The position numbers and the translations under genes were made by a program. From NCBI GenBank assembly GCA_029939945.1, contig JAOZRX010000001.1:43384-107383 (forward strand): 64,000 bases of DNA. The letters run 5' to 3'. The notes beneath the pieces were generated by a model, which saw only the letters and a list, made by a program, of their open reading frames with translations, had not been told where the DNA came from and made no database searches. Position 1 is the first letter of the stretch; each line of letters opens with the position of its first letter. Positions 26,856 through 49,512 of this stretch are shown in pieces. Source of the stretch: Candidatus Izemoplasma sp. Its GTDB lineage: Bacteria; Bacillota_I; Bacilli_A; Izemoplasmatales; Izemoplasmataceae.

Positions 26856-28232
26856 ATGAAAAAAGTGTTAATAGTTTTTGGGATATTTATATTTTTACTT
26901 ACAGGTTGTGAAACAAAAGAAAAAACGGGTGATGATCCAATTATTTGTGATGATGGATACTCTCTTATAGATAACGAATGTGTCTTAGATGATGTTACTC
27001 CAGAAGTGTACGTTGCTAGTTATGATTTTTCTACTGATACAGTCTCTACTAGAGATGAAGTGATTGAGAAAGTAGTATTTTATCAAGGTAAAATTCAAAA
27101 TCTTATAGGATCAAGTGCCGAGGGTGAATTAAGTAGTGGATTAACAAGGCTTTCTACAGGCGAAACTTTTTACACAAGAGAAGATTTTGCTTTATATGAT
27201 AATCAAGAATATAACGAAACATCATTTGTTGATATTGAATCATTAATGAATACAGAAATGACAATTTCTACATTAAAAGATACTATTAGTAGATGTGAAA
27301 GTTTTGTTGAAGGTGAGTTTTGTGATGTAGCTGCTTTGGATTATGAATATGCACCTGATAGCCGTATTTTAATGCAAACAGATGGAGATAGATTATATAT
27401 CGAATCATATCGTTATAATGCTAATCTTAATTATGTTTCTGCTGAAATAATGTTTTTTGATTTAATAGATGGATTAGTTTATTTTGAATATGTTAGAGAT
27501 AATAATGAAAATATTGGAGAAGTATTATTTGAAAATGTTTATTATGATCGTTTCATAGAAGGTTTTGGAGCAACTGCTGTTGCGATAAGAGCTGGAGGAG
27601 AAATATATTATCAGTTTGATAGTACAGATGGACTAGATAGATTAAATTTTAGAATTCTTGAGGGAGAGAAATATATCTCTTATAGAAGTAGAGAAAATCA
27701 AATATACTACACATATTCATACTCTCAATATAGAGATACTGACAAATATTATATTGATTTTCAACGTGGAACCAAATCGTTCTTAAAATATAAATTTAAC
27801 TCTTTTAATACAGATGTTATTGTTCAATGGAATCTACTTGAAACAACAGGTTGGGATAAAATAGGTTTAACAGAATCAAACGAATGTCATATCTACAATG
27901 GCGATGTTGAAATCTTGACTGATTTTTATAGAAATGCTTTCCATTCTTATGTAGAATATGCAGAAATTGCACGTGATTACGATGAATCTGAGTTAACTCA
28001 AAGCATCATTGATTTAAGTGATTATGGACTATTATTTAGCGAAGTTACTTTAGAACAGATTAACACTGAAAGAGATAATCTTATAGATAACTTTGATATA
28101 TTAAAAACGTATCATGGATTTTCAGAATCAGATGATTTAAATAGACAAGAACTACTAGATATGTATCCATTCTTTGCAAATGAAGATATCATTGCTGAAT
28201 TATCAGCATTAGTTGTTTTAGATGATGAGTAA
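26856..28232 (+). CDS. lipoprotein of unknown function with one CDDGYSLIDNECVLDD module
   Basis: Lipobox LLTGC. One copy (26946-26993) of the Cys-pair module that is repeated in the 21329 protein. Confidence 0.7.
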   Translation: MKKVLIVFGIFIFLLTGCETKEKTGDDPIICDDGYSLIDNECVLDDVTPEVYVASYDFSTDTVSTRDEVIEKVVFYQGKIQNLIGSSAEGELSSGLTRLSTGETFYTREDFALYDNQEYNETSFVDIESLMNTEMTISTLKDTISRCESFVEGEFCDVAALDYEYAPDSRILMQTDGDRLYIESYRYNANLNYVSAEIMFFDLIDGLVYFEYVRDNNENIGEVLFENVYYDRFIEGFGATAVAIRAGGEIYYQFDSTDGLDRLNFRILEGEKYISYRSRENQIYYTYSYSQYRDTDKYYIDFQRGTKSFLKYKFNSFNTDVIVQWNLLETTGWDKIGLTESNECHIYNGDVEILTDFYRNAFHSYVEYAEIARDYDESELTQSIIDLSDYGLLFSEVTLEQINTERDNLIDNFDILKTYHGFSESDDLNRQELLDMYPFFANEDIIAELSALVVLDDE

Positions 28233-29752: not shown

Positions 29753-29817
29753 AAATCTTAAATAAATCTTAACTCAATCCTCAACCCTTTGACCTCATTC
29801 GAATATCAAGGTAGTAT
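29753..29817 (+). promoter_or_regulatory. tandem 11-bp direct repeat (candidate OmpR-type regulator site) plus promoter, site a
   Basis: AAATCTTAAAT AAATCTTAACT, 14 bp, TTGACC, 17 bp, TAGTAT. Confidence 0.65.
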
Positions 29818-29947
29818 ACTCGTGAAAGAAAAATAAACGCCAAAATTGGAGTGATCCAGTGACGGAAAACTAAAGGGTCTCAAGAAGATAGCCAGTTGCC
29901 TTTCTAGGTAACTTTTTTGTTACGAAAAATTAAAGGAGGATCTTATA

Positions 29948-30430
29948 ATGATCAGAAAATTATCAATTTTGTTAGTAGTATTAGCAGCATTTGGAGGGAC
30001 AGTATCTGCATATTCATGGTGGGATACATTACAAGTTACACAAAGTGAAACATTAACAATTGGAGAAGGAACAGATTTAGTATTGGCAGTTAACGCAACT
30101 GCACCTGCAGGAAAAGTATTAGTACCAGATGGTGTTGTTTTAGGAGTTAATGATGTAGACGAAATCGTCTTAAGTTATGATGTTAACTTAAGTAAAGAAG
30201 CTCAAAGTGATTTAGAACTTAATACAAGCGTATCTAATTTATTAATTGACGGAGACGATACTTACATTTCATATGTAGTTATCGATGTTACACCATCAAC
30301 TGTAGATATTAACGATGATACAATAACTGTAACAGTAACAGTTACACTTACTGAACCACTAACTGAAGTTATTTATAACGCTGTAGTTAATGGAGACATC
30401 ACATTTGATTTAACATTTAACGCTTCATAA
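29948..30430 (+). CDS. secreted acidic protein with SipW-cognate-type signal peptide (paralog family member 1)
   Basis: N-terminal LLVVLAAFGGTVSAYSWWD, then ETLTIGEG...GKVLVP...ITFDLTFNAS, collinear with the 33189, 39026 and 40766 proteins. AAAGGAGG RBS. Confidence 0.7.
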   Translation: MIRKLSILLVVLAAFGGTVSAYSWWDTLQVTQSETLTIGEGTDLVLAVNATAPAGKVLVPDGVVLGVNDVDEIVLSYDVNLSKEAQSDLELNTSVSNLLIDGDDTYISYVVIDVTPSTVDINDDTITVTVTVTLTEPLTEVIYNAVVNGDITFDLTFNAS

Positions 30431-30461
30431 TTAAAGAAAAATAACATAAGGAGGTGGCAAT

Positions 30462-31313
30462 ATGAAAAAATTATTAATTATATTATTAGTTACAACTATC
30501 ATAATTTCAAATAGTGCCATTTCCAAAGGTTATGGCTTCTTTGATACAAAAACCGATACAGCTAATGAACTATTAGATATCGGTTTTTGGGATTTTATAC
30601 CATTACCAATCGGGCCTGATTTCGCTAGTAAATTATCCATATATGTTGATGATGCTATAGCAGAAGACCCCGATTCGAAATTGAAATACATCTATTCACA
30701 AACAGATGTACCAAATAATAAAACAGCTAAAATAAATGAAATAGATGTTTTTGGATATACATGGAAATTTGAGGGAAAAGGTAAAACTACCAATTATCCT
30801 ACTATGGGATATCCTGTATTGATTGATAGAGCATTAGATGAATTTGGAAATCCAGTTCACGATATAGCTCCAGCATATTCAACTACACCACTATATCCAG
30901 AATACAACTATTTTACAGCTTATGATGCAATGAATCTTCACACTAATAATCAATATAGTCTTAGATTAAATTATATGGATTACTTAAGTACAACAACATC
31001 TATTGGAAAAGTATCAAACATATCTTTTTATGCAAACATTGGACTAAGTGACCCTGATGATGCAGAAAGTATAAGAAGAGCAAGATTTTATGTTTTTGTA
31101 TCAGACCGTAATGGAGGTTGGACACGTATAGGTAATGTAAGAAGCACATTAGTAGCTTCTGAAAGTGAGTACTTCACTCATCACTCATTTGATGTCCCAG
31201 GAAACTTGTTAGGTGAAGAACTATTCGTTAAAATTGCATTTTATGGGCAAACGTACTCTGCTGGATTTAGTAGGTTGATTATAGATGATCTTATAATCAC
31301 AATGGTAGATTAG
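30462..31313 (+). CDS. secreted protein with SipW-cognate-type signal peptide (distinct family, accessory-like)
   Basis: N-terminal hydrophobic segment followed by SKGYGFFDTKTD, resembling the GTxAxF(S/T)D class of signal. 283 aa with no other motif. Confidence 0.6.
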   Translation: MKKLLIILLVTTIIISNSAISKGYGFFDTKTDTANELLDIGFWDFIPLPIGPDFASKLSIYVDDAIAEDPDSKLKYIYSQTDVPNNKTAKINEIDVFGYTWKFEGKGKTTNYPTMGYPVLIDRALDEFGNPVHDIAPAYSTTPLYPEYNYFTAYDAMNLHTNNQYSLRLNYMDYLSTTTSIGKVSNISFYANIGLSDPDDAESIRRARFYVFVSDRNGGWTRIGNVRSTLVASESEYFTHHSFDVPGNLLGEELFVKIAFYGQTYSAGFSRLIIDDLIITMVD

Positions 31314-31321
31314 GTGATATT

Positions 31322-31894
31322 ATGAAAAAAAATAGATATAAAAAAGAAATTATTGATACAATTAAATTTATATTATTACTTATTGTTATAGTTGTAGTAT
31401 TCAAACTTGTTTTCACCTATGTTCCACCACTTAATAAATACGACCTATATGTTATTAAAACTGACTCTATGGATCCAATTATTCTGCCTGGGGATATTGT
31501 TGTAATTAAAGAAATAGATTCAGGTGATATTAAAGTCGGAGATATAATGGCGTTTCATGTGGATATTAATGGTGATAATGTAGATGATGTTGTAGTACAT
31601 TATATTGCTGAAATAAATTCAAATAATAATGAATTAATCTTTAAAACAAAACCACATGTTAGTGAATTACACGATAGATGGACAATTGAAGAACAAGATT
31701 TAATCGGAATATATACATATCAAGTAAATTATCTAGGTAAAATTATCATGTTTGCACAATCATGGGTAGGAAAAATCATACTTGTGGCAGATGTAATAAT
31801 CATTTCAGTTATTTACGATGTATTATTTAGTAAGAAGAAGAAAACAAAAATCAAGGGAAAAAAGGATGATATAGAAAACATCTCTGTTAAATAG
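31322..31894 (+). CDS. sipW: archaeal/ER-type signal peptidase I (S26B, SipW-like), copy 1
   Basis: N-terminal TM, catalytic-Ser box KTDSMDP, GDIVVIKE, GDIMAF, His box VVHYI, plus a C-terminal TM and basic tail. Terminator at 31877-31906. Confidence 0.75.
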   Translation: MKKNRYKKEIIDTIKFILLLIVIVVVFKLVFTYVPPLNKYDLYVIKTDSMDPIILPGDIVVIKEIDSGDIKVGDIMAFHVDINGDNVDDVVVHYIAEINSNNNELIFKTKPHVSELHDRWTIEEQDLIGIYTYQVNYLGKIIMFAQSWVGKIILVADVIIISVIYDVLFSKKKKTKIKGKKDDIENISVK

Positions 31895-32399
31895 AGATGT
31901 TTTTTTGAATTGTCTGCTACATAGTGAACACTCCCACTACTTACAATAGACATTGTTGAAGTAGGGGCTTCTCGGGTAGTGCGCACTACCATGCGCAAAT
32001 TAATCGAGCTATCAAGGTTGTCCCATCCTCTTATACTAGTATTGCTTAGTTTTCTATTTTACTCCTTTTAATATATTTATCTAGATTTATTATAACAATT
32101 GCTTATTGAAAGGACAAAATGCAGAAAACGCATTTTTTTATAATAAAACTTAATTTTTGAACCAGAAATTACATCTGTTCATCTCACCAGTTACGATATT
32201 ATCAATTAAAAAATGAAGTCACAAGACTTCATTTATTTTAAATTCATTTTATTCTCCTTATATTTACATTTGTTTTTTGCTTTTCTATTTTATATAATCG
32301 TATAGTATCATCCTTGAGATTTTCATTCAATATACAGAGAATCGAGTTAATATTAATGTAAAAATTACATGAAAAGATAATGTTAAATATATATGTTAT

Positions 32400-32463
32400 A
32401 AATCTTACATTAATATTAATTTGAATAGACAGTAATTGACTATTGAAGACGAAATGGTAATAT
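32400..32463 (+). promoter_or_regulatory. direct-repeat site plus promoter, site b (upstream of pilin-like gene)
   Basis: AAATCTTACAT TAATATTAATT, 14 bp, TTGACT, 16 bp, TAATAT. Confidence 0.55.
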
Positions 32464-32530
32464 TAGTATGAAATCGGAAATGAATTGATTTATAGAAAAG
32501 GTTTCTTACATAGCAATTGGAGGTGTAAAT

Positions 32531-32965
32531 ATGATAAAAGGAAATAAAGGTGTTACACTAGTAGAATTATTAATTGTAATAGTAGTAATGGGAATCATAG
32601 CTACATTCTCAATTGTATCTGTTAGGAAAATTATTGAAAATACAAAAAAAGATCGTGTTTATGCAGATGCTTTAATGGTTGCTGAGGCAGTAACATTATA
32701 TTGTATAAGTGATGGATGTGAACCAAAAGAGGGTGCTACTAATACCCATGTTAAGTGGAAACACATAAAGATGTATATAGATGGGATTGATGAGGAATAC
32801 TATAATTTACCAGATGGATTTTTAGTTTCGATAGTTCAAGCAGGAGAAATAGAAAGTCCTAGAGTTAGATTAAGAGCAATAGACCCAACAGATTATTCAT
32901 GGTATATATTTAGAGATCCGAGTGATCCAGATAATGATAGAGATAATGTAACTACTCGAGAGTAA
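32531..32965 (+). CDS. type IV pilin / pseudopilin-like protein (prepilin-type N-terminal cleavage/methylation signal)
   Basis: MIKGNKG|VTLVELLIVIVVMGIIA has a Gly at -1, Glu at +5 and a hydrophobic helix. 144 aa. Terminator at 32997-33029. Confidence 0.8.
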   Translation: MIKGNKGVTLVELLIVIVVMGIIATFSIVSVRKIIENTKKDRVYADALMVAEAVTLYCISDGCEPKEGATNTHVKWKHIKMYIDGIDEEYYNLPDGFLVSIVQAGEIESPRVRLRAIDPTDYSWYIFRDPSDPDNDRDNVTTRE

Positions 32966-33091
32966 TAATAGTAGATAACAAAAAAATATGAAAAAGAATA
33001 CTAGATATTAGATTATCTAGTATTTTTTATAGATATTAGATAATCTAATGGATAATTACTAAGAATTTGAATTTAGAGAGTTTTAGATTTG

Positions 33092-33156
33092 AAATCTTAA
33101 ATAAATCTTACAGTCACTCCTTTGTAATTGTTTTTTTTGATAAGCTACCATACAAT
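33092..33156 (+). promoter_or_regulatory. direct-repeat site plus promoter, site c
   Basis: AAATCTTAAAT AAATCTTACAG, 14 bp, TTGTTT, 17 bp, TACAAT. An inverted degenerate half-site TTAGATTT abuts at 33083-33090. Confidence 0.6.
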
Positions 33157-33188
33157 AAAATTATAATAAGCAAAAGGAGGGTATCCAA

Positions 33189-34196
33189 ATGAAGAATAAA
33201 CCTTATAAAATTCATCGAAAAATAGTTGGTTATTTATTAGTGTTATCATTAATTCTCACAACCGGTACTTTTGCTTATTGGGCAAATTATGTAGAGGGAA
33301 CAAATAATGAAATAACTGAAACATTAACTGTTGGGTCTGCGAAAAGCGTTAAATCAAGATTTGATATCGCAAATGAATTACATAGCGGAGGAAGACTTGT
33401 ACCTAGTAATCAAGTTGAAAATAGTGAAGCAAATGCAGTTGCAAAAATAGATTTAGCATACAATATTGCCTGGTTAGAAGATTCAAATGTAACACAATTA
33501 AATGGAACTTCAACTATGGGCTTAATAGGTATATCTCATAGTCTTATTATTGTAGTGAATGGTGAAGAATTAGACTCAAGTGTATATCCAAAAATATTTG
33601 AATTAATTAATGTAAATTATGATGTAAATAATAAAACTCAATTAGTATTTAAAGGAGAATCTGAAACATTCTTCTTTAGTGTAACAATGGATGAACCTGA
33701 AAATCAAAGAGAGTATTTACTTATTAGAAATGCTAGTATAACTATAGAATTCACTTTTAGTATCCATGATAGTTTAATCGAAACAACTAATAATACTGAT
33801 GATGATTTAGAACCTGCTTCTCCATATGGAGATACATTATCTGAGATAGCACCTAGTATTATTAATGATATGCAAGAGAAACTATCTTCAACAGGATCAT
33901 ATGGTAGATCTTGGGGGAAATACAGATATACAGATTTAGGATTAGACCCTGAAAACTGGGATGAAGCAATTATGCATATTCATTATAAGCCTTCTGGAAG
34001 CAGCTTGTTTTTACGCCCTGAAGACGGATATGGATTCACAGTATATAATTTTGATAACGATGAGTTCTCATTAGATTCAACATATAATTGGAATTTGATT
34101 TATAGTGATATAGATGGGAATTGGTATTTCCATAGTATTACAGAATCAAATATAATTGATATAAATACTCTCGTAGTTGAAAGTATTACGGATTAG
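33189..34196 (+). CDS. secreted acidic protein with SipW-cognate-type signal (paralog family member 2, with about 135-aa C-terminal extension)
   Basis: LILTTGTFAYWANYVEGTNNE, then ETLTVGS...GGRLVP...VTMDEPENQREY...ITIEFTFSI. Terminator at 34245-34290. Confidence 0.7.
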   Translation: MKNKPYKIHRKIVGYLLVLSLILTTGTFAYWANYVEGTNNEITETLTVGSAKSVKSRFDIANELHSGGRLVPSNQVENSEANAVAKIDLAYNIAWLEDSNVTQLNGTSTMGLIGISHSLIIVVNGEELDSSVYPKIFELINVNYDVNNKTQLVFKGESETFFFSVTMDEPENQREYLLIRNASITIEFTFSIHDSLIETTNNTDDDLEPASPYGDTLSEIAPSIINDMQEKLSSTGSYGRSWGKYRYTDLGLDPENWDEAIMHIHYKPSGSSLFLRPEDGYGFTVYNFDNDEFSLDSTYNWNLIYSDIDGNWYFHSITESNIIDINTLVVESITD

Positions 34197-34427
34197 TATA
34201 TGAGTACAAAGATACTTTTGCACATAAGAAATTAGAATATTTAAAAAACAGACTATAATAGAATTTGATTTGTATAGTCTGTTTTATTTTTATTGAGTAA
34301 TTTAATATTAAACATAAATTATCTAAAGTTATAAAGAAGTAAGTTATTAAATATGAAAATGTGTTACAATTATTTTATAATATAATAGATATGTATATAA
34401 GCATATAAGTTTATTTGGAGGTGCTTT

Positions 34428-37400
34428 ATGAAAAAGAAATTGTCTCTAAAAGAGATCTTAGTGTACGGGAGTTTAATGTTCATATTTGTGTTTGCTATTG
34501 TTTTTTTGGTTACTTTAGAAGAAGAAACAGTAGGAATAGAATACTTTCATGTATATCAATCAAATTATGATGATCCAATTGAGATAAAAATCGGGGTACT
34601 AGCAAATCAAGGCACTGTTGCTGCACATAATCGCTGGGATGAAACTGCAGAATACTTGAATAATAAAATTGTTGATCATACATTTGTAATTGTACCGTTA
34701 TCATTTGATGATGTTAGTCAAAAGGTGGTAAGTGAAGAAGTTGATTTTGTGTTGGTTAACTCATCTTTTTATATTGACTTAAATGTAAATATTGGTGTTA
34801 CAAGTATTGTTACAATGAATAATCTAAATCTAGATGTTGAATTAACTTCTTTCGGAGGAGTGGTTTTTACAAGAAGTGATAATGATGATATAAGTGACTT
34901 CTCTGATATTAGGAATAAAGACTTTGCTGCGGTAGATGAAAATTCATTTGGTGGATGGCAGACTGCCTTAAAAGAATTTATAGATCATGATATTGATCCT
35001 TTTTCTGATTTTAAAAGTGTTACATTTATCGGAACTCAAAATGAAGTTGTATTAGACGTAATAAATGGAACTTACGATGCAGGTACCATTCGAACAGGTA
35101 TTATAGAAGAAATGATTGAAGATGGTTTAATCAACTCAAATGAGATAAAAGTAATTCATGAGGAAACCCCGGATTTTCCTGTCTTGATTTCTACTCAATT
35201 ATATCCTGAGTGGCCCCTTGCAAAAACAGCGCATATATCAAATGATTTAGCAAATCAGGTTGCAGATGCTTTAATTCATATGAGTAGAACTGATCAAGCA
35301 GCCATTGATAGTGGTATTGCAGGTTGGACAATTCCTCAAAATTATCAAGACGTACGTCAAACACTAAAACTTATTAAAGCTTCACCATATGAAGATTATG
35401 GTTCAGTGTCATTTAATAATTCGTTGTATTATAGTCGTGTTTTCTTAATCATTATTTTATGGGCCTTGTTAATAATTGTATCAATTGTTTTTTGGTTAGT
35501 TCACACTCGTGAAAAAATGGTTTATTTAACAAAAAGATCAAAAGTAATGGAAAAAATAGCAGTCGAGGCAAATGAGGCTAAAGGTGAATTTTTAGCCAAT
35601 ATGTCTCATGAAATCCGAACACCTATGACTGCTATAATTGGATTGTCTACGCTGTTAGATAGTACTGAATTATCTATTAGACAACGTGATTATAATCATA
35701 AACTAAAAAGTTCAGCAGTTAACTTGCTAGGGATAATTGAGAACATTTTAGACTATTCAAAAATTGATGCAAAAAAAATGAAAGTTGAAAAAATAGAATT
35801 TGAACTAAATGATGTTCTATATAATCTTTCAAATGTAGTAACACTGAAGGCAATGGAAAAAAATATTGAATTCTTATTTAGTATTCAATCAAAGTTACCT
35901 AAAAAGTTTATTGGAGATCAACTAAGGATAGGTCAAGTTTTAATTAATTTGGTTACAAATGCAATTAAGTTTACTGATAAGGGACAAGTTGTCTTAGAAA
36001 TAAATACAGAACTTAAAAATAATAAACCATATTTATCATTTGCTGTAAAAGATTCAGGCATTGGAATGACTACGAAGCAAATAAATGAAATATTAAATCC
36101 ATTTACTCAAGCTGACAGTTCATTTACTAGAAAATATGGTGGAACAGGACTTGGATTAACAATAACTAATCAATTGATAAGATTAATGGGAGGAGAATTA
36201 TACATTTCAAGTGTAGAAGGAGTGGGAAGTACTTTTGCATTCTCAATACCATTAAAACCAGTTGATGAGGATAATGATTCATTTGTTATTCCAGAAAAAC
36301 TATTAAATCTTAATGTGATGATAGTTGATGATAATGAAACCTCATTAAATATATTAGAAGAAATATGTGTTTCCCTAGGATTTAATACAAAGATAGTATT
36401 ATCACCTTTTGAAGCTATAAAAATACTAGAACAAAAGGAATTTATTCCTGATATTATAGTTCTTGATTATGTAATGCCAGAATTAAATGGTATTGAATTA
36501 GCAATAAAATTAAGAGAGAAAGAATTATTAACAGATACACAATCATTATTGATGGTGTCAGCATTTGGTAAAGAAAGTGTTATTAACGATGCTATGGATG
36601 CAGGTATTTCTGAATTTCTTGATAAACCAATTAATCCATCGTTTTTCTATAATACAATACTGAGTTTGTTTGATGAAACAGAATTCAAGAAAAGCAGTAG
36701 ACATGAAAATAGAAAAAAAGTAAATTTAGTAAAACCAGGAACAAATATTATTCTTGCAGAAGACAATAAAATAAATCAACAAATCGTTTATGAATTGTTA
36801 TCAAGAGAAGGTTTTGACGTAACGATTGCAAATGATGGTGTTGAAGTAATTGATTTACTCGAGGCAGATGAGTTTGATTATCAACTAATACTAATGGATA
36901 TTCAAATGCCTAATTTAAATGGTAGAGATGCTACAATAAAAATTCGTGAAACTGAAAGTAAATATCAAAATATACCAATTGTTGCAATGACAGCACATGC
37001 TTTAGAAATTGAACGTAAAAAGTCTCTTCAGGCAGGAATGAATGATTTCTTAACTAAACCTCTTGAGATACCAAAATTATTTAATGCATTATCAAAATAT
37101 ATTGATATTGTTTCTGTAGCAATAGATAATAAAAAATCTGGCACAGTAAATCTAGACTTTTTAGATACAAAAGAGGGATTAAAAAACCTTTCAGGTGATG
37201 AAGCATTCTATATTGAAATATTATATAATTTCTTAACTGATTATAAGGGTTATGACAAAGTACTAGAAAATTTATTTGGTGATGAAGATGAAGAAGATAT
37301 AATCATAGAATGTCATACAATAAAAGGATTGGCTGCTACTATAGGTGCAAAAGAACTGCAAAAAAATGCGGAAAACTTAGAAAGTAACTTAAGAGAAGGC

Positions 37401-37508
37401 AATTTTGATTATGGTAGCTTTTCTAAATTCGTTGAATCGTTGAAAGAATTAAATAAAAAGTTGGATAGTTATTTCAATGATAACCCTTTTAAACGAATTA
37501 AACGCTAA
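34428..37508 (+). CDS. hybrid sensor histidine kinase (extracytoplasmic PhnD/SBP-like domain, HisKA-HATPase, two receivers, HPt)
   Basis: Two TM helices bracket about 310 aa with [10 protein letters not shown]...[11 protein letters not shown]-box SHEIRTPM, N-box [10 protein letters not shown]-boxes DSGIGM and GGTGLGL. Receivers carry VLDYVMP and LMDIQMP. HPt motif is [12 protein letters not shown]. Confidence 0.9.
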
Positions 37509-37537
37509 ACTATTATCACAGATATGGAGATGTTGAT

Positions 37538-38305
37538 ATGGATGTCAAAAATAGATTAAAGAAAAACAAGAGGAAAATCTTGCTAGTAGAAGACAATCAC
37601 TTAAATATCCGAATCATGAGTAGATTATTACAAGGCATGGGTGTGGATATTGTAGAAGCAAGTAGTAAGAAAGAAGCAATAAAAATAGCTGTAGAAGAAA
37701 ACTTTTCAATGATCTTTATATGTATTTTCATGCCGGAAACTATTGGATATGAAATCATAAAGAAAATACGCGAACTAAGCGAAATAAATAAAGATACACC
37801 AATCATCGCAGTATCATCTAGCAGTTACAATTCTATGACAAATAAAATGATGGAATGGGGTATTGAGGATGTCATTTCAAAACCATTAAAGGAAAGTGAA
37901 TTGCTAATTTTGTTTAAGAAGTATACAGTTGAGAAAATTCTATCTAAGCCACAAACAACTATGAACTTTAGTATGTTTGATAATAAAGAATTTGAGTCTT
38001 TTTATAATGATGATAGTCTTCAAAAAGAAATAATCTTAACATTTATTAATGAAAGAGATAATGATTTAGATAGAATGAATGAAGCCTTTCATTCTAAAAA
38101 TATTGATAAAATATATGAAGCTCTGCATTATATGAAAGGTTCATTTTCATATTTAAAAGCAAAAAAGATTTTGGAACTTACTCAGCAAATATTAGATTTA
38201 CTAAAAGTTAAAAATTTAAAAGATGCATTACTTCTTGAGAGAACATTTTATAACAACTATAATACATTATTTAAAGAGTTAAATTTCTATATTAATAGTT
38301 TGTGA
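37538..38305 (+). CDS. receiver-like domain (Asp to Cys at acceptor position) fused to HPt domain
   Basis: LLVEDN ... MIFICIFMPETIGYE aligns with the DxxMP acceptor segment, with Cys (TGT 37721-37723) in place of Asp. Conserved IAVSS and SKPL are retained. The C-terminal HPt motif is HYMKGSFSYL. Confidence 0.75.
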   Translation: MDVKNRLKKNKRKILLVEDNHLNIRIMSRLLQGMGVDIVEASSKKEAIKIAVEENFSMIFICIFMPETIGYEIIKKIRELSEINKDTPIIAVSSSSYNSMTNKMMEWGIEDVISKPLKESELLILFKKYTVEKILSKPQTTMNFSMFDNKEFESFYNDDSLQKEIILTFINERDNDLDRMNEAFHSKNIDKIYEALHYMKGSFSYLKAKKILELTQQILDLLKVKNLKDALLLERTFYNNYNTLFKELNFYINSL

Positions 38306-38338
38306 AAATTGATGATATTTAGAAAGAAGGTATAGAAT

Positions 38339-38878
38339 ATGAGTGCTATAAAAAATATTATGTATTATATTCTTGTAATATTTTTAGTTATATATGTATC
38401 TATACTGGCATTTAGTCCTGATAGAATGATTGAATTTATTGGATTCAGAGCATTTATTGTTCTTTCTAATTCAATGGAACCCACTATAAATATTGAGGAC
38501 ATGGTAATCTGTAAAAGAGTAGATGAAGAAGATTTAGATATTGGAGATGTTATAACATTTAATGTCTATATTCCTGAAATGGATTCCTTAGTTTACGTTA
38601 CTCATTACATCGGAAATATAGAAGAAAGTGATGGAGTGAAAATATATTACACAAGAGGGGAACAACAAGCAGAAAATACATATGACGAGTGGAAAGATAA
38701 AGATGGAAACCCTGTAGATATCACATTTGATGATATTGAAGGAAAATATTTTTTCAAAATCCCATATATTGGACATGTAAAAAACGCTTTAACAGAACCA
38801 GTAATACTTACTTTAGTGATATTAAATGGTGGTGTTATATATATATTAGTTAAATATATACGTCGTAAAGGTAAATAA
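38339..38878 (+). CDS. sipW: archaeal/ER-type signal peptidase I (SipW-like), copy 2
   Basis: N-terminal TM, SNSMEP, GDVITF, VTHYI, C-terminal TM and RRKGK tail. Terminator at 38893-38925. Confidence 0.75.
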   Translation: MSAIKNIMYYILVIFLVIYVSILAFSPDRMIEFIGFRAFIVLSNSMEPTINIEDMVICKRVDEEDLDIGDVITFNVYIPEMDSLVYVTHYIGNIEESDGVKIYYTRGEQQAENTYDEWKDKDGNPVDITFDDIEGKYFFKIPYIGHVKNALTEPVILTLVILNGGVIYILVKYIRRKGK

Positions 38879-38925
38879 TGTAAAACTAGGTAAAAAGGAT
38901 CAGAATAATTTCTGATCCTTTTTTG

Positions 38926-38989
38926 AAATCTTACATAATTATTAACTATTTAACAAATTACTTGTCAAAAAAACTTAACTTAATACAAT
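38926..38989 (+). promoter_or_regulatory. direct-repeat site plus promoter, site d
   Basis: AAATCTTACAT AATTATTAACT, 14 bp, TTGTCA, 16 bp, TACAAT. Confidence 0.55.
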
Positions 38990-39025
38990 AGAGGTATCAA
39001 AACGAATTTGAAAGTTGGGTTATTT

Positions 39026-39640
39026 ATGAAAAAAGTTAAGGAGAAAAAGCAATACAAGTTTCTATCAATAAGATTTATTGTTAAAATCTTGTTGATAGTA
39101 TCGTTCATTATGACATCTAATACATTTGCATACTGGGCAGATACGGTTGTAGGAACTAATACATCTATCACAACCACTTTTTCAGTAGGCTCTCCTTCAT
39201 TTGTTAATCATGAATTTGTACTAACGGATGAAATAAATACCTTTAGCTATGTAATCCCACTAGAAGAATTATTAAGTGATCCAGATAATAGTATCGATGA
39301 TGTAATATTTGGAATTATTTGGAATGACGAGGAATTATTAGAAGAACTTCAAAATCTTGATGCTTCAGCAGAAGTCGAAGTAACTTACGATATCTTAATT
39401 ACTGAAAATGGTAAAGAAGTAAAAAAATGGAGATATAAAAGACTTGTTAAATTAATTAATTTAGAGTTAGATGAAGATAATCCTAATACAATTAGTTATG
39501 GTAATACACCAGAAACATTTGGATTTAGTGTTTCATTAAACGAAGAGCAAAGAAAAAATGATTATAGACTTTTAGCAAAACATGAAGTTACTATCGTAGT
39601 TAGTTATACAATAATAGAGGATACTATTGTTAGTGATTAA
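39026..39640 (+). CDS. secreted protein with SipW-cognate-type signal (paralog family member 3)
   Basis: FIMTSNTFAYWADTVVGTNTS, then TTFSVGS...VSLNEEQRKNDY...VTIVVSYTI. I prefer ATG 39026 over the listed TTG 39008. Terminator at 39680-39736. Confidence 0.65.
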   Translation: MKKVKEKKQYKFLSIRFIVKILLIVSFIMTSNTFAYWADTVVGTNTSITTTFSVGSPSFVNHEFVLTDEINTFSYVIPLEELLSDPDNSIDDVIFGIIWNDEELLEELQNLDASAEVEVTYDILITENGKEVKKWRYKRLVKLINLELDEDNPNTISYGNTPETFGFSVSLNEEQRKNDYRLLAKHEVTIVVSYTIIEDTIVSD

Positions 39641-39820
39641 TCTATTTCAATAAACTGAATAAGATGATAAAGTAAAAATAACTGCACCTAATACTTGGAC
39701 ATAGCCAACTATGACAAATTAGGATGCAGTTTTTATATGTGATATCTTCTTGTAGAATATTCCCTATTTTGATATAATATGTTTGTTAGGATTTTATTTC
39801 ATAACTAGGGAGGGCATAGT

Positions 39821-40537
39821 ATGAAACGTATTCTTCTAGTAGAAGATAATAAGGTAGTATGTAAGACAATTGAAAGGCATCTAGTTAATAATGGATATAA
39901 GGTCGATTGTGTGTTTAATGCAGAAGATGGATTACTTGAAGTGAATAAGCATCAATACACAGCTATAGTACTAGATTTAAACTTACCAAAAATGAGTGGT
40001 TATGCTTTCATACAAATTTTGCGTAAGAAATCAGATATTCCAGTTATTATTAATACTGCGCATGCTAGTGTAAAATCAAGGGTTAAACTTATTAATGTTG
40101 GAGCTAGTGATTTTATAGAAAAATCGATGCATCCAGATGAAATTATAGAAAGCATCAAAATTATTTTAGAAGATCGAGATGAAATGAAAAATAAGAATAA
40201 GACATTTAAGTATAAAGATATTGTAATAGACTTTTCAACGAGAACAGTAAAGAAAAATGGAAAAGTATTAGAACTTACCTCAAAAGAGATTGATATATTA
40301 AAGACTTTACTTGATAATCCTAATAGAGCATTTTCAAGAGAACAATTATATTTAGTTGTATGGGGTGAACATTATTCTGAATCTGTTGATAATACAATTA
40401 ATGTACATATTAAGAGATTAAGAAATAAAATTGAGGAAACACCAAAAAAACCTGAAATTATTGAAACGGTATACGCTTATGGATATCGTTTAGGTAAATC
40501 AGTTGTTGATATGCTTCAACAAAGAATGGAACAATAA
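39821..40537 (+). CDS. OmpR/PhoB-family response regulator
   Basis: Receiver with LLVEDN, IVLDLNLP and a conserved Lys. The winged-helix output has LTSKEIDILKTL...VHIKRLRNKIE...YGYRL. Own promoter TTGTAG-17-TATAAT. Confidence 0.9.
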   Translation: MKRILLVEDNKVVCKTIERHLVNNGYKVDCVFNAEDGLLEVNKHQYTAIVLDLNLPKMSGYAFIQILRKKSDIPVIINTAHASVKSRVKLINVGASDFIEKSMHPDEIIESIKIILEDRDEMKNKNKTFKYKDIVIDFSTRTVKKNGKVLELTSKEIDILKTLLDNPNRAFSREQLYLVVWGEHYSESVDNTINVHIKRLRNKIEETPKKPEIIETVYAYGYRLGKSVVDMLQQRMEQ

Positions 40538-40630
40538 ACAAAGAGTGAATCGAATGATTCACTTTTTTTATGTCGAAATACAAATTTAATAAACGGCTAA
40601 AACAAGAGGAAAAACAATATCTAACATACT

Positions 40631-40695
40631 AAATCTTAATTAAATCTTAACTAGATACTGCATCCATTGACTAAGAATACTATGGATGATACTAT
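40631..40695 (+). promoter_or_regulatory. direct-repeat site plus promoter, site e
   Basis: AAATCTTAATT AAATCTTAACT, 14 bp, TTGACT (40667-72, which is the listed TTG start), 17 bp, TACTAT. Confidence 0.65.
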
Positions 40696-40765
40696 ACGAT
40701 TATACAAAGGAAAAAAAGCAAGAAAAACTATAAAAACTAAAAAAGAAAATATAAGGAGAAAAACA

Positions 40766-41374
40766 ATGAAAAAAGAACAAAATAAAAATTCAAGAAAAAA
40801 GGTAATCGCTATATTAGTAATGTTATCACTAGTATTAACAACAGGAACATTCGCATATTGGGCAAGTTACGTTGAAGGAACTGATGCAGAAGTAACAGAA
40901 ACTTTAGTAGTAGGTTCAGGAGACACAATCGAAACAACATTTGATATATCAGATGATAATACTATAGGTGGATTATTAGTGCCAGTTGGACAAGCAGTTA
41001 ATTCAAGTTTATATGCAATTGAAGAAATCAATTTATCATTTGATGTACAATGGTACGAAGATGAAGACCAAACTCAAACTTACGGTATAGATTCAATTGG
41101 ACAAATCGTTATTGATCATGAATTATTAATCGTAATTGATGGAGAAGAATTAGATCATGATGACTATTCAGATATTTATGACTTAGTAAACGTATTATAT
41201 AGTGAAGACAATGCAACAGATATGTATTTAGATAATACAGATTCATTCTCATTCCAAATTACAATGGATGAACCAGCTAATCAAGAAGAATATAATTTAA
41301 TCGCATTCGCAGAAATTTCAGTAACATTCTCATTCACAATTGACACAGATGATATTGAAAGTACTGATTATTAA
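40766..41374 (+). CDS. secreted acidic protein with SipW-cognate-type signal (paralog family member 4)
   Basis: ATG 40766 with an AAGGAG RBS. LVLTTGTFAYWASYVEGTDAE, then ETLVVGS...GGLLVP...ITMDEPANQEEY...VTFSFTI. 3' hairpin at 41418-41452. Confidence 0.75.
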   Translation: MKKEQNKNSRKKVIAILVMLSLVLTTGTFAYWASYVEGTDAEVTETLVVGSGDTIETTFDISDDNTIGGLLVPVGQAVNSSLYAIEEINLSFDVQWYEDEDQTQTYGIDSIGQIVIDHELLIVIDGEELDHDDYSDIYDLVNVLYSEDNATDMYLDNTDSFSFQITMDEPANQEEYNLIAFAEISVTFSFTIDTDDIESTDY

Positions 41375-41500
41375 TAATATTAATAACAGTAATAATGTTC
41401 ATATCCACCCTTTTAATAGAGAAGAATTATACTTATCGTATAATTCTTCTCTTATATATTATAGTAAAGAACTAACATTTTTTTGTTATTCACAGAAATT

Positions 41501-41564
41501 GAATCTTAAATAATAATTAACTCAATTATCATTTATTGACTGTGATAATTATCAATGATATTAT
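41501..41564 (+). promoter_or_regulatory. direct-repeat site plus promoter, site f (upstream of sipW-like copy 3)
   Basis: GAATCTTAAAT AATAATTAACT, 13 bp, TTGACT, 17 bp, TATTAT. Confidence 0.5.
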
Positions 41565-41613
41565 ACAAGGGAGAAGAAAAGACTAGGATATTGATTAAAG
41601 GAGATGGTGAATT

Positions 41614-42213
41614 ATGAAGAATGTAATTGACAACATTAAATTAGGATTATATATGGGAATAATTGGAATAATCTTACTATACATTGGTACTTTGATATTT
41701 ATGCCAGACTTAACGGTAAAAATATTTCGTTTTAAACCTTTTGTAGTTGTAACAGAATCAATGGAACCTTACATTAATGTTAATGATATGGTAGTTGTTG
41801 GTGTTTTCGATATTGATGAAGCAGAAGTTGGAGATATTATCACATTCGAAGCTGATATAGATTATAATGGAACAAAAGAAATTGTGACACATTATATTTA
41901 TGAAATCGATAGAACTAGAGATGAAGCAGTTATTCGAACAAATAGATATTTTGATGAAGATCAAACGATAACTCCAGATACATGGATAATCCCAGAAAAT
42001 AATGTTATTGGATCATATAGTTTTCATATTCCATACATGGGATATCTAGTAGGATTTATAAAGAGTATTTACGGAATCATTATAATTGGAATTAATGTTC
42101 TCATATTTGGGGGAATAAAATATATTAATAGAAAAACTAAACAAAAAGAATTGTTAGAAAAAGAGAATAAAAAAGAAGAAGAATTAGAAGAGGAAATTAA
42201 ACAATTAGATTAG
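41614..42213 (+). CDS. sipW: archaeal/ER-type signal peptidase I (SipW-like), copy 3
   Basis: N-terminal TM, TESMEP, GDIITF, VTHYI, C-terminal TM and a long K/E-rich tail. Confidence 0.75.
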   Translation: MKNVIDNIKLGLYMGIIGIILLYIGTLIFMPDLTVKIFRFKPFVVVTESMEPYINVNDMVVVGVFDIDEAEVGDIITFEADIDYNGTKEIVTHYIYEIDRTRDEAVIRTNRYFDEDQTITPDTWIIPENNVIGSYSFHIPYMGYLVGFIKSIYGIIIIGINVLIFGGIKYINRKTKQKELLEKENKKEEELEEEIKQLD

Positions 42214-42324
42214 TAAAATTAATGTACTTATATAAGAGTGAATCGAATGATTCACTCTTTTTTATGTCGAAACATCAATTTAACAAATGGCTAAAATAAG
42301 AGGAAAAACAATATCTAACATACT

Positions 42325-42389
42325 AAATCTTAATTAAATCTTAACTAGATACTGCATCCATTGACTAAGAATACTATGGATGATACTAT
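42325..42389 (+). promoter_or_regulatory. direct-repeat site plus promoter, site g (copy of site e)
   Basis: Identical sequence to site e. Confidence 0.65.
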
Positions 42390-42459
42390 ACGATTATACA
42401 AAGGAAAAAAAGCAAGAAAAACTATAAAAACTAAAAAAGAAAATATAAGGAGAAAAACA

Positions 42460-43068
42460 ATGAAAAAAGAACAAAATAAAAATTCAAGAAAAAAGGTAAT
42501 CGCTATATTAGTAATGTTATCACTAGTATTAACAACAGGAACATTCGCATATTGGGCAAGTTACGTTGAAGGAACTGATGCAGAAGTAACAGAAACTTTA
42601 GTAGTAGGTTCAGGAGACACAATCGAAACAACATTTGATATATCAGATGATAATACTATAGGTGGATTATTAGTGCCAGTTGGACAAGCAGTTAATTCAA
42701 GTTTATATGCAATTGAAGAAATCAATTTATCATTTGATGTACAATGGTACGAAGATGAAGACCAAACTCAAACTTACGGTATAGATTCAATTGGACAAAT
42801 CGTTATTGATCATGAATTATTAATCGTAATTGATGGAGAAGAATTAGATCATGATGACTATTCAGATATTTATGACTTAGTAAACGTATTATATAGTGAA
42901 GACAATGCAACAGATATGTATTTAGATAATACAGATTCATTCTCATTCCAAATTACAATGGATGAACCAGCTAATCAAGAAGAATATAATTTAATCGCAT
43001 TCGCAGAAATTTCAGTAACATTTTCATTCACAATCGACACAGACGATATTGAAAGTACTGATTATTAA
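42460..43068 (+). CDS. secreted acidic protein, identical at protein level to the 40766 product (paralog family member 5)
   Basis: The ORF-track translations of the two copies are identical. I saw only synonymous nucleotide differences, for example ATTGACACAGATGAT versus ATCGACACAGACGAT. Confidence 0.75.
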   Translation: MKKEQNKNSRKKVIAILVMLSLVLTTGTFAYWASYVEGTDAEVTETLVVGSGDTIETTFDISDDNTIGGLLVPVGQAVNSSLYAIEEINLSFDVQWYEDEDQTQTYGIDSIGQIVIDHELLIVIDGEELDHDDYSDIYDLVNVLYSEDNATDMYLDNTDSFSFQITMDEPANQEEYNLIAFAEISVTFSFTIDTDDIESTDY

Positions 43069-43262
43069 TAATAGTAATAATAGTAATAATAGTAATAATG
43101 TTCATACCCCCCCTTCTAAGAGAGAAGAATTATACTTAGCGTATAATTCTTCTCTTATATATTGGAGTAAAAAAAATAGAAATTATCTTTACAATCAGTA
43201 TATACTGTCATCAAAATTGGGAATTAAAATAGAAAAAAAACAACTTCAAATCAAAGTTGTTT

Positions 43263-43817
43263 TTATTTTGAGATACAATATTCACTTAAGTATTCATTTG
43301 CTTTTTCATATGCAATATTTACACATTTGTCAAAGTCTCTTATGAAGTCTTCCCAACGGTAAATAGATATGAATGAATCATAGTTAACATTGTTCTTATT
43401 TTGAATTACTATTTCATTATGAATATTAGAAGAAATAATTTCAGGTAATTTAGTCTTATCAACACCCCAAATACCTTTTTGTCCCTTTTTCATAATATAA
43501 CTATAGTCATTACCTTTATCTGGGATAACAACTCCAATAATACCTTTTGTTGAACTAGAGAATGTATTATTCAATGAGTATTTTATTTCATATGGAATAG
43601 TGTCACTACTAAGTATGTTTCTTGATATTAGTACTACAGTAACATCTGTATGAGAAATCTTTTTTTCAAGTTTTAATAAAGACTCTTCAGTGTGTGGTAA
43701 TAAGTCGGTATCTTCATTTGAGTATTTATATTTTCTTCCTTTAAATTTATCCATAATTTTAAATTTAAAGTTCATTGAATCTGAATGGATATATGATATG
43801 TATATATTTCTTTTCAT
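43263..43817 (-). CDS. TIR-like domain protein (DUF1863 / ThsB-like pattern)
   Basis: 184 aa. N-terminal IYISYIHSD, then VTVVLISRNILSSDTIPYEIKYSL and KGIIGVVIP match the strand-helix pattern of bacterial TIR-like proteins as I recall it. AGGAGG RBS. Confidence 0.45.
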   Translation of the reverse strand: MKRNIYISYIHSDSMNFKFKIMDKFKGRKYKYSNEDTDLLPHTEESLLKLEKKISHTDVTVVLISRNILSSDTIPYEIKYSLNNTFSSSTKGIIGVVIPDKGNDYSYIMKKGQKGIWGVDKTKLPEIISSNIHNEIVIQNKNNVNYDSFISIYRWEDFIRDFDKCVNIAYEKANEYLSEYCISK

Positions 43818-47795: not shown

Positions 47796-49499
47796 TTAGT
47801 TAATTATAGTTCCACTATCTTTTTCAACATAAAAGACATCAGTAATAGTCATTGTTTTGAATGGATCCATTTTAAATTCTTCATTTATTGCTAAAGGTAA
47901 TTGCAAAACATAAAAATCAGTTGTTTCTCTTACGATAATAAAGGGGATATCTAATCCATTATAGGTATATTCATTTGGATTATATACAATTGGACTTGTT
48001 GTGTTAGGACCATAATAACCAACTGCATCAGGGTTTAAGATAATAATCGGATAATGATTACGGTCTTTAAAGCCTAAAGCTTTATCTATTCTGTAATAGT
48101 ATCCTGCAATTTTTTCACCCCAGAAAGCATCACTAGCATATTTATAATTCATACCTTGATTTTTATTTCCGAAGTTTGTTCCAAATGATACTGAATATGA
48201 TGGATCAAAGTAACGGGGTTGTAAAAAGTTTTCAGTATGGTATACAATACATTCCTCAATAGAATCAAAACTCAAAGCTGCATCATAAGGATTAGCGTCA
48301 ACTGCATTGATTCCAAAAAGATTAAATTTTGTTCTAGCAATTAAAGAACCTCCCCATCCGCTTTCATGAATAGCGAAAGATAATTCCATTGCTGCATTAA
48401 TAAAGACATTATCTTGAGCGTTAATAAATTGTTCACCACTATCTCTTAAGACACTAGTTTGTGTAACGATTGAGTTTAAGTAAGTATTTAATTCTTCTGC
48501 AGTATAATTTGTTTTTGAACGGAATGACAAATATTGATAGTAGTTATAATAAGGCGTTTCGTAATTAATTGAATTTTCATATGTTTCATTAGTTAAATCA
48601 TCAGTCATTGTAATGATATCTGTATAAAAATAACGATTATCGTAACTATAGTATTTATGACCTTCTTCTAAATAATTTGGAGCTATATCAATAGGCCCTA
48701 ATAAATGGTATCCACGACTTTCAAGATCATACGAGACATAGTGGTATAGTTCACCTGATTGATTCTCATAGTAGGAGTATGTATCGTTTAATTGAATATG
48801 GGGGATTAACTGTATATCGTTAGTCATAACTTCAAATTTAACACCAGATATCATTCCATAAGTGAAAATGCTATCAGTGTATAAGAATACTGCATCTACA
48901 TTATAATATCCATTAATATAAGTAGTTATCGGGAAACCTGGACGACCTAATATAATTATTTGTGATGGATCAGGATTCTTAAAATTAACTACTCCATATT
49001 TCATAGCGACAACATCATTATTGTATAAAACAACTACATTTGGATTATTGCTTCCATTAATAATTTTTCGAGCTAGTTTTAATGTTTTGTAAGTCCCAAT
49101 TATTGTGAAAGTATCATCTGCATTTGCTTCAGCATATGTGAATAGACATTCACTTTCCCCAAGGTCTTCACAAGTTAAAATATCTTCAGCTTCACAAGTA
49201 TAATGATCAGGTAATAAATTGCAATTAACTTCAACAACTTGGCACTCAGCGTGTTCAGGAGTAACAAGACAATTAACATCTTCGACCTTACAGTCAGCGT
49301 GTTCAGGAGTAACAGAGCAATTAACTTCTTCAATTTGACAGTCGACATGTTCAGGAGTTAATTCACAGTTAACTTCTTCAGTTTGACAGTCAACATGTTC
49401 AGGAGTTAAATCACAGTTAATGTCTTCAACTTTAGGAATAGTAGTACAACTACTTAAGATAAAGACTAAAATAAGGGTCAATAAACCTAATTTTTTCAT
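47796..49499 (-). CDS. lipoprotein peptidoglycan hydrolase (GH73 N-acetylglucosaminidase domain) with Cys-pair stalk repeats
   Basis: Lipobox ILSSC and 5 x 16-aa NCxLTPEHxDCxxEEV repeats. The GH73 motif is AIHESGWGGSLIARTKFNLFGI. Confidence 0.8.
   Translation of the reverse strand: MKKLGLLTLILVFILSSCTTIPKVEDINCDLTPEHVDCQTEEVNCELTPEHVDCQIEEVNCSVTPEHADCKVEDVNCLVTPEHAECQVVEVNCNLLPDHYTCEAEDILTCEDLGESECLFTYAEANADDTFTIIGTYKTLKLARKIINGSNNPNVVVLYNNDVVAMKYGVVNFKNPDPSQIIILGRPGFPITTYINGYYNVDAVFLYTDSIFTYGMISGVKFEVMTNDIQLIPHIQLNDTYSYYENQSGELYHYVSYDLESRGYHLLGPIDIAPNYLEEGHKYYSYDNRYFYTDIITMTDDLTNETYENSINYETPYYNYYQYLSFRSKTNYTAEELNTYLNSIVTQTSVLRDSGEQFINAQDNVFINAAMELSFAIHESGWGGSLIARTKFNLFGINAVDANPYDAALSFDSIEECIVYHTENFLQPRYFDPSYSVSFGTNFGNKNQGMNYKYASDAFWGEKIAGYYYRIDKALGFKDRNHYPIIILNPDAVGYYGPNTTSPIVYNPNEYTYNGLDIPFIIVRETTDFYVLQLPLAINEEFKMDPFKTMTITDVFYVEKDSGTIIN
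49191..49430 (-). repeat. in-frame 48-bp tandem repeat, about 5 copies
   Basis: The repeated unit (TCAGGAGT-containing on the + strand) encodes the NC..TPEH.DC motif. Confidence 0.85.
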
Positions 49500-49512
49500 A
49501 AAATGTCACTTC

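Follow-up and report, generated by a model that had tools for sequence, protein, structure and literature searches.

The 64-kb stretch of contig JAOZRX010000001.1 from Candidatus Izemoplasma sp. that was analysed here (the window; 29% G+C) contains, at 29.7–43.2 kb, a locus in which genes for three signal peptidases of the endoplasmic reticulum (ER)/archaeal type (SipW1, SipW2 and SipW3) are interspersed with genes for secreted proteins (A to E), a type IV pilin-like protein and a phosphorelay. All of the locus genes lie on the + strand, and every open reading frame (ORF) that a preliminary description of this DNA, made from the sequence alone, had placed here was found as described. The flanks are unrelated to the locus: an SPFH protein is encoded upstream, and a TIR-domain protein and flavoproteins are encoded downstream on the opposite strand. 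The genes are as follows.

29948..30430, + strand: A, 160 aa, distant subunit of the FAYW family, signal ...GGTVSA|YSWWD
30462..31313, + strand: B, 283 aa, secreted accessory protein unrelated to the FAYW family, GYGFFD-type signal
31322..31894, + strand: SipW1, ER/archaeal-type signal peptidase I with DSMDP and VHYI boxes
32531..32965, + strand: pilin-like gene, prepilin signal KG|VTLVE
33189..34196, + strand: C, 335 aa, FAYW domain followed by a 135-aa C-terminal extension
34428..37508, + strand: hybrid sensor kinase, 1026 aa, with a PhnD-like extracytoplasmic domain, a transmembrane (TM) segment, HisKA, HATPase, two receiver (REC) domains and a histidine phosphotransfer (HPt) domain
37538..38305, + strand: pseudo-receiver-HPt protein, REC domain with the acceptor Asp replaced by Cys, plus HPt
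38339..38878, + strand: SipW2, ER/archaeal-type signal peptidase I
39026..39640, + strand: D, 204 aa, FAYW-family subunit
39821..40537, + strand: OmpR/PhoB-type response regulator, REC plus Trans_reg_C
40766..41374, + strand: E, 202 aa, FAYW family, candidate major subunit
41614..42213, + strand: SipW3, ER/archaeal-type signal peptidase I
42460..43068, + strand: E', protein identical to E

C is 46% identical to E over 202 aa and D is 27% identical to it (E-value 1e-27). A is more distant (22%, E-value 2e-5); in hhalign, 164 columns of an A-type profile align to that of the E family, with a probability of 99.1%. B shows no relation to the FAYW family and has a signal of similar flavour, GYGFFD here and GYSYWD in homologues. 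Scanning the whole window for the signal motif returned five genes, all of them within the locus, and the variant VSAYSWW of A makes a sixth. The preliminary description had counted seven genes with SipW-type signals; the number is six, encoding five distinct proteins. Its five-member subunit family stands insofar as there are five paralogous genes (starting at 29948, 33189, 39026, 40766 and 42460). E and E' are identical, so that the distinct members number four, and the product of 30462 (B) is unrelated.

No Pfam or NCBIfam model matches the mature domains of the subunits, in agreement with the earlier failure to find in them a motif of any characterized family. This supports the view that they are neither enzymes nor solute-binding proteins. 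The family is large, with at least 624 clusters at 50% identity in a profile search (E-value ≤ 1e-3). A match to the SipW-type signal model TIGR04088 was found in 6 of 141 family representatives (E-value ≤ 0.01). JGI labels several homologues as 'ribosomally synthesized peptide with SipW-like signal peptide'; we reject this label as a function, the products being folded beta-sandwich domains of ~170 residues. Across the family, strong conservation is seen in the columns W, G, L-V-P, W, E-P and Y. There is no conserved Asn or Lys among them that could correspond to the Asn-Glu-Lys isopeptide triad of BsaA.

Long members of the family carry CBM5/12, BspA-LRR, Flg_new (Listeria-Bacteroides repeats), Bact_surface_Ig-like and GA domains. 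These adhesin fusions support an adhesive surface role and resemble the division between major subunit and tip adhesin in pili. The C-terminal extension of C has no match in Pfam, and we regard C as a candidate adhesin-bearing subunit. B has no assignment in Pfam or the PDB; faint hints of an F5/8 type C domain in 3 of its 28 homologues leave a carbohydrate-binding or anchoring partner as a possible role.

SipW1, SipW2 and SipW3 score 66.1, 70.6 and 69.1 bits, respectively, on TIGR02228 (sigpep_I_arch, curated cut-off 51.85), and the counterpart peptidases of Acholeplasmataceae reach 64.1 and 68.7 bits on the same model. Their nearest relatives in the PDB are human SEC11C and SEC11A. When SipW3 is aligned to SEC11C, the TESMEP serine box coincides with SGSMEP and the VTHYI histidine box with IVHRV; both boxes are kept in 18 homologues, and hydrophobic segments are apparent at the N- and C-terminal ends of the translations. 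Because the two boxes align to the catalytic Ser and His of SEC11, the peptidases are predicted to be Ser/His enzymes and not Ser/Lys enzymes of the LepB type, and all three score below the bacterial LepB-type model. The preliminary description had assigned the genes at 31322, 38339 and 41614 to the archaeal/ER type, with a LepB Ser/Lys dyad as the finding that would speak against it, and this assignment is confirmed. The equivalog model for Bacillus SipW (NF046067, cut-off 190 bits) is not reached (57.2, 55.4 and 58.0 bits), and judged by their sequences the three enzymes are SipW-like in type, not orthologues of B. subtilis SipW.

The three peptidases are mutually just 24–31% identical. A tree with 15 further homologues, taken from related loci, resolves three orthologue clades, one for each SipW, whose partner genes are constant across genomes: A-B for SipW1, the kinase and D for SipW2, and E for SipW3. 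SipW1 groups with the Izimaplasma HR1 copy in a clade of its own, and the SipW3 clade adjoins E in both Izemoplasmatales and Acholeplasmataceae. Since low identity is combined with three clades that each keep the same gene neighbour, the SipWs are ancient specialized paralogs and not recent duplicates.

SipW3 is flanked by the two copies of a duplication:

40541..41471: first duplication copy, ~930 nt, contains E
42234..43174, + strand: second duplication copy, ~930 nt, holds a promoter motif (42326..42345), E' and a terminator (43121..43155)

E and E' being identical and their flanks nearly so, the duplication, and with it the count of five subunit genes, might be an artefact of assembly. We give this almost no weight. 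The flanking repeats differ (98% and 89% identical, not exact), the order E, SipW3, E recurs in L003 (L002–L023 denote loci taken from related genomes), which comes from an independent metagenome assembly of the same organism, and L008 and GCA_002919055.1 also carry two identical copies of E. Because of the shared order in L003 and the paired copies in two other genomes the duplication is probably real, and it may raise the dosage of the major subunit. SipW3 itself is broken into two ORFs in L003 (341–956), by a frameshift or an assembly error. For E and E' an upstream TTG start (40667/42361) was considered and rejected: this TTG belongs to the -35 hexamer, and it is the ATG at 40766/42460 that is conserved as the start codon.

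The first operon (A-B-SipW1) is preceded by a riboswitch for cyclic di-GMP (c-di-GMP), which had been missed in the preliminary description. Its leader is composed of the following elements.

29789..29817, + strand: sigma-70-like promoter of operon 1 (TTGACC, 17 nt, TAGTAT), recognized by consensus match alone
29829..29903, + strand: c-di-GMP-I riboswitch aptamer (RF01051, 54.2 bits against a gathering threshold of 35, model positions 1–87)
29894..29913, + strand: intrinsic terminator hairpin and U-run, the expression platform, with a 5' arm formed by the aptamer's own 3' strand

The RF01051 alignment shows conservation of the unpaired G, of AAA in the junction and of GCC. These match the ligand contacts of the Vc2 structures (the G preceding P1a, an A in the junction and the 3' C). 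The element would act as a transcriptional ON switch, because aptamer and terminator share a strand and the ligand-free minimum-energy fold forms the terminator and not the P2 helix of the aptamer. An orthologue in the Izimaplasma HR1-like locus L022 shares the aptamer-terminator design; its loop differs, and a position in its stem is compensated. Riboswitches of this class lie upstream of A-type genes in L013, L017, L018, L019, L020 and L022/L023, that is, in every related locus in which the upstream DNA is present, and the link between riboswitch and subunit spans genomes of Izemoplasmatales and Acholeplasmataceae. L022 has two successive units of c-di-GMP-I riboswitch and A-type gene (8656–9406); the first aptamer directly adjoins the ribosome-binding site (RBS), no terminator is obvious there, and translational control is suggested. 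In the locus of the window, a permissive Rfam scan found no riboswitch or leader besides the c-di-GMP aptamer.

A second regulatory signal is the tandem motif AATCTTAA-N3-AATCTTAA. It has six matches in the window against 0.35 expected, and every one of them lies within the locus, ahead of a gene, which bears out the proposal that the modules are wired to one regulator motif. Apart from the copy before E', already given, the sites are:

29754..29773, + strand: AATCTTAA-ATA-AATCTTAA, 11-bp period, ending 15 nt upstream of the -35 of operon 1; putative regulator site
33093..33112, + strand: motif upstream of C
38927..38946, + strand: motif upstream of D
40632..40651, + strand: motif upstream of E
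41502..41521, + strand: motif upstream of SipW3

From the end of the motif to a TTGAC-type -35 element there are 14–16 nt at A, D, E, E' and SipW3, and 24 nt at C; a weak copy at 32400, before the pilin-like gene, also lies 14–16 nt from its -35. Such spacing is the usual class I activator position for OmpR/PhoB-type regulators, and we infer that the OmpR-type regulator of the locus binds the motif. The kinase and regulator genes have no motif upstream. Exact copies were found in related loci only in L003 (same organism) and L012. Direct repeats of differing sequence with an 11-bp period (TTAACTA, AATAGATATTA or AATCTTAA) precede subunit genes in L004, L005, L008 and L012. These lineage-specific repeats suggest binding sites that co-evolve with each regulator; they are consistent with this, not proof of it. 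Because operon 1 bears both the motif and the riboswitch, it would be a two-signal AND gate.

The phosphorelay itself is as the preliminary description had it. The hybrid kinase combines a Phosphonate-bd domain (PhnD-like sensor) with HisKA, HATPase, two receivers that keep their Asp and an HPt domain; the separate REC-HPt protein is degenerate, having Cys at the phospho-acceptor position; and the regulator is of the OmpR type.

A subunit gene adjoins a SipW gene in nearly all of the 18 loci surveyed, which come from genomes of Izemoplasmatales, Xianfuyuplasma, Acholeplasmataceae and Mycoplasmatota, and this survey confirms conservation of the neighbourhood. Seven Izemoplasmatales loci keep, wholly or partly, the order kinase, REC-HPt, SipW2, D, regulator, E, SipW3. 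The kinase is conserved in L002, L004 and L005, and wherever a syntenic locus includes the complete regulator gene, the orthologue is 59–77% identical. A-B-SipW1 stands apart as an operon of its own in Izimaplasma HR1. The Acholeplasmataceae version is compact and consists of A, E, a protein of CBM5/12 repeats with the same signal, a SipW, a TM protein and a second SipW. The large FAYW-signal CBM5/12-repeat proteins of these operons (L019 5870–7453; L020 10656–11936) suggest that the binding target is chitin or another polysaccharide. The TM protein between the two SipWs (~205 aa, conserved, no family match; L019 8126–8734, L020 12658–13281) was considered as a degenerate SipW, and this was not supported, as it has no detectable likeness to SipW. 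Close homologues of the subunits come solely from metagenome-assembled genomes of Izemoplasmatales and other Tenericutes, none of them with a Pfam domain, and the species-representative genomes that contain the family belong to Izemoplasmatales, Xianfuyuplasma, Acholeplasmataceae, Mariniplasma and unclassified Mycoplasmatota or Bacilli. The superfamily was found solely in wall-less Bacilli.

These neighbourhoods bear on the possibility that the SipWs merely serve as general signal peptidases in a lineage without LepB, their position saying nothing about function. In its favour, many other exported proteins of the window are lipoproteins that require signal peptidase II alone. We nevertheless think this improbable: each of the three ancient clades has the same neighbouring gene from one order to another, a separate copy of the motif precedes SipW3, SipW1 is co-transcribed behind the riboswitch, and within the window the FAYW-type signal is confined to the locus.

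The structural comparison centres on TasA. An AlphaFold2 model of E from a deeper alignment is a beta-sandwich with a predicted local distance difference test score (pLDDT) of 85.6 and a predicted TM-score of 0.78; a first model had a pLDDT of 73.7. In Foldseek, TasA (5of1_A) is the first-ranked PDB match of the better model (probability 0.82, E-value 5.6e-3, TM-score 0.32, root mean square deviation ~12 Å), and 5of1 ranks second with the first model. A likeness to the TasA fold, which the preliminary description had put up for comparison, therefore holds for the rank of the match and not for its significance. Sequence profiles agree with TasA in one place: the hhalign register at the N-terminus sets TFA|YWAS against TWA|AFND (the TasA query sequence agrees with 8aur and 5of1). 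Mature residues 1–10 of E have a pLDDT of 38; in conservation across the family, this block nevertheless ranks second (W2 at 99%). Such a conserved N-terminus, disordered in the modelled monomer, gives indirect support for donor-strand assembly. The donor strand of BsaA is likewise disordered in monomer models, and the TasA/BsaA superfamily is extremely divergent in sequence (PMC11580942). AbpA, a proven TasA homologue, failed automated structure comparison with monomeric TasA (PMC9245690).

Several results weigh against a TasA-like fibre. No PDB structure matches E at an E-value ≤ 1e-3, the TasA match being weak, and the fibre form of TasA and the archaeal bundling pilins are absent from the structure matches. 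None of the four distinct subunits matches PF12389 (E-value ≤ 0.1), and hmmsearch of the E-family profile against the PDB sequences gave matches at chance level alone. Against a 34-sequence TasA/CalY profile, hhalign aligns the E family over 59 columns, the signal and N-terminal strands alone, at 23% probability; against the single TasA sequence the probability is 2.8%, again for the N-terminus alone, and with the A-type profile it is 0.6%, the aligned part once more being the signal and N-terminal region. C and E score 14.5 and 14.9 bits on TIGR04088, below the cut-off of 19. Finally, the conservation of the N-terminus could stem from recognition by the peptidase alone. The subunits are thus not TasA-like by sequence, and the model of their fold is suggestive at a level below significance. 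Fibre formation, the candidate function in the preliminary description, is not established by a fold match of this strength and a profile alignment confined to the signal and the N-terminal strand.

The same observations are open to another explanation, in which the FAYW proteins remain monomers, secreted or close to the membrane, and serve for instance as adhesins or a surface coat, the sandwich is a stalk, the SipWs merely process signals and the regulation is unchanged. The mature domain has no significant sequence or fold homology to any fibre subunit, the long members look like ordinary modular adhesins, and an N-terminal recognition element for the peptidase would fit here as well. We still judge monomeric proteins to be the rather unlikely case, because the locus encodes several short, co-regulated paralogs without an adhesin domain, and because two identical copies of the presumed major subunit, here and in two other genomes, suit a structural polymer. 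TasA is also the first- or second-ranked fold match in the two models, and the N-terminus behaves as the BsaA donor strand does.

We therefore favour, as the probable function of the locus, a regulated, membrane-anchored surface-adhesion or matrix apparatus of a wall-less Izemoplasmatales bacterium that works like TasA/BsaA. A, B, C, D and E would be exported via Sec with a signal in which a hydrophobic core is followed by G-T-F-A|Y-W-A. The three ER-type Ser/His SipWs would cleave it after a small residue, at a predicted site that corresponds to TWA|AF in TasA. The conserved N-terminus so released could then undergo donor-strand exchange of the TasA/BsaA kind, entering the sheet of the following subunit, and polymerize the subunits into short fibres anchored in the membrane, with E as the putative major subunit and with C, like the CBM5/12-, LRR- and Ig-bearing versions in relatives, as the candidate adhesin-carrying subunit. 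Expression would depend on the hybrid kinase, which is predicted to pass phosphate through its own REC and HPt domains to the OmpR-type regulator, in a relay that the pseudo-receiver-HPt protein may modulate. The regulator would bind the tandem AATCTTAA repeats before A, C, D, E, E' and SipW3. At operon 1, c-di-GMP would hold the 3' strand of the aptamer, block the overlapping terminator and so turn A-B-SipW1 on.

A more far-reaching proposal, which we make tentatively and for which we would not claim an even chance, is that the proteins are an unrecognized class of fibre subunit specific to wall-less Bacilli (Izemoplasmatales and Acholeplasmatales), with strand exchange on a bare membrane, substrate-specific SipWs, tips that bind chitin, glycan or protein, and gating by kinase AND c-di-GMP. 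This would be the first c-di-GMP-controlled attachment or matrix organelle in a Mollicutes-related lineage.

The orphan type IV pilin-like gene noted in the preliminary description does encode a prepilin N-methylation motif (PF07963, 27.7 bits; TIGR02532, 26.6 bits). Together with the weak copy of the promoter motif upstream, it would be the centre of a system in which a type IV pilus or pseudopilus secretes the FAYW proteins as cargo; PilA3-dependent secretion of BsaC has been proposed in Clostridium perfringens (PMC11580942). This seems very improbable to us. No type IV pilus assembly gene (PilB, PilC or PilD) was found in the window, the pilin-like gene has no homologue in any related locus, and a wall-less cell offers no peptidoglycan barrier.

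Comparison with known systems supports a membrane-anchored apparatus in outline and sets the locus apart in its parts. The closest resemblance in content is to sipW-bsaABCRSD of C. perfringens, which produces membrane-anchored fibres in dependence on its own two-component system (PMC7395162; PMC11580942). Both loci combine a SipW with several paralogous secreted subunits, accessory secreted proteins and signalling genes within the cluster. The clostridial fibres sit on the membrane, not on peptidoglycan, and have functional links to type IV pilins. The present locus has three SipWs instead of one, a hybrid-kinase phosphorelay instead of a simple two-component system, and an added c-di-GMP riboswitch. 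It lacks a vWA-domain gene like bsaC and the conserved N-E-K triad, its host has no wall, and its subunit family has no detectable homology to TasA/BsaA past the N-terminus. A vWA-domain lipoprotein is encoded ~10 kb upstream (19115–20536, + strand); BsaC likewise has a vWA domain, but the present protein carries a lipoprotein signal and is not part of the regulon.

The tapA-sipW-tasA operon of B. subtilis and sipW-tasA-calY of B. cereus likewise place a dedicated ER-type SipW beside its substrates, which share the signal G-T-(W/F)-A|(A/Y)-(F/W) in the same register, and TasA is the best fold match. An accessory secreted protein is also encoded in the operon, TapA in B. subtilis and B here. 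The differences are the absence here of PF12389 and of profile homology in the mature domain, NF046067 scores of 55–58 against 190 bits, and regulation by an OmpR-type regulator and c-di-GMP where Bacillus uses SinR, Spo0A and RemA. The archaeal bundling pili AbpA/AbpB are similar in having a divergent beta-sandwich subunit and a proposed donor-strand mechanism (PMC9245690). Profile comparison assigns AbpA to PF12389 at 97%, and no peptidase is dedicated to it, whereas the present subunits have no PF12389 match and three peptidases. In the c-di-GMP-I systems of Clostridia, too, a leader RNA turns on surface-adhesion genes via a terminator platform; C. difficile CD2831, CD3246 and pilA1 are reportedly adhesin and pilus genes controlled in this way. 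The clostridial cargo consists of sortase-anchored adhesins or type IV pili, and here of SipW-dependent proteins.

The arrangement had been called more elaborate than any known. Its uniqueness was overstated, given the similar bsa operon and the two SipWs that are usual in Acholeplasmataceae. The general design is already known, because sipW-bsaABCRSD combines a SipW, TasA-like paralogs, accessory proteins and a two-component system. What is new is a subunit family without detectable TasA homology or a family model, three co-evolved SipWs, a phosphorelay with a pseudo-receiver-HPt protein, a conserved c-di-GMP riboswitch and a wall-less host. The absence of a cell wall in the host lineage has been seen by electron microscopy (PMC8397711). 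A full-text literature search retrieved no paper that connects Acholeplasma or Izemoplasma with SipW or with c-di-GMP riboswitches, and none that places a riboswitch of this kind before a sipW-type, TasA or camelysin operon; the searched literature describes neither a surface-fibre or biofilm-matrix apparatus nor a c-di-GMP output for free-living wall-less bacteria.

Free-living wall-less bacteria such as Izemoplasma and Acholeplasma are abundant in sediments and on hosts, and the locus offers a widespread candidate for such an apparatus, with its large family conserved across two orders. It also provides a regulatory handle, in the c-di-GMP riboswitch (an ON switch in its predicted direction) and the putative phosphorelay-dependent promoter motif, and a natural experiment in signal-peptidase specificity, each of the three SipW paralogs being tied to its own module. 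If the fibres are real, the donor-strand matrix principle of TasA/BsaA/Abp extends to cells whose membrane is the sole anchor, and the CBM5/12 variants would indicate particles of chitin or other polysaccharides as the target of attachment.

Between the first two modules lies a relic of an E-type promoter, 5' untranslated region and RBS (32243..32367, - strand; ~70% identical to 40630–40770), which drives merely a 4-codon ORF followed by a bidirectional terminator (32211–32234). It marks a past rearrangement between modules 1 and 2. The segment between SipW1 and this relic (31905–32075), GC-richer, non-coding and with local hairpins, was considered as a structured RNA and rejected (z of roughly -0.65 for either strand); Rfam has no match to it, and the window contains no further copy.

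Directly downstream of the locus, 43263–43817 (- strand) encodes an orphan TIR/ThsB-like domain protein with FMN reductase neighbours and no ThsA-like partner. Upstream, two lipoproteins (21329–25039 and 26856–28232, + strand), one of them a 1236-aa S41 peptidase, share the N-terminal Cys-rich repeat C(D/E)DGYSL(I/V)D(N/D)ECVLD. The region 47796–62811 encodes a glucosaminidase, a C39-like peptidase, a PIG-L deacetylase, ROK, AnmK, GH4 and GHL10 proteins, which together form a peptidoglycan and amino-sugar salvage cluster. Because these salvage genes sit in a lineage described as wall-less, the cluster suggests scavenging of foreign cell-wall material.

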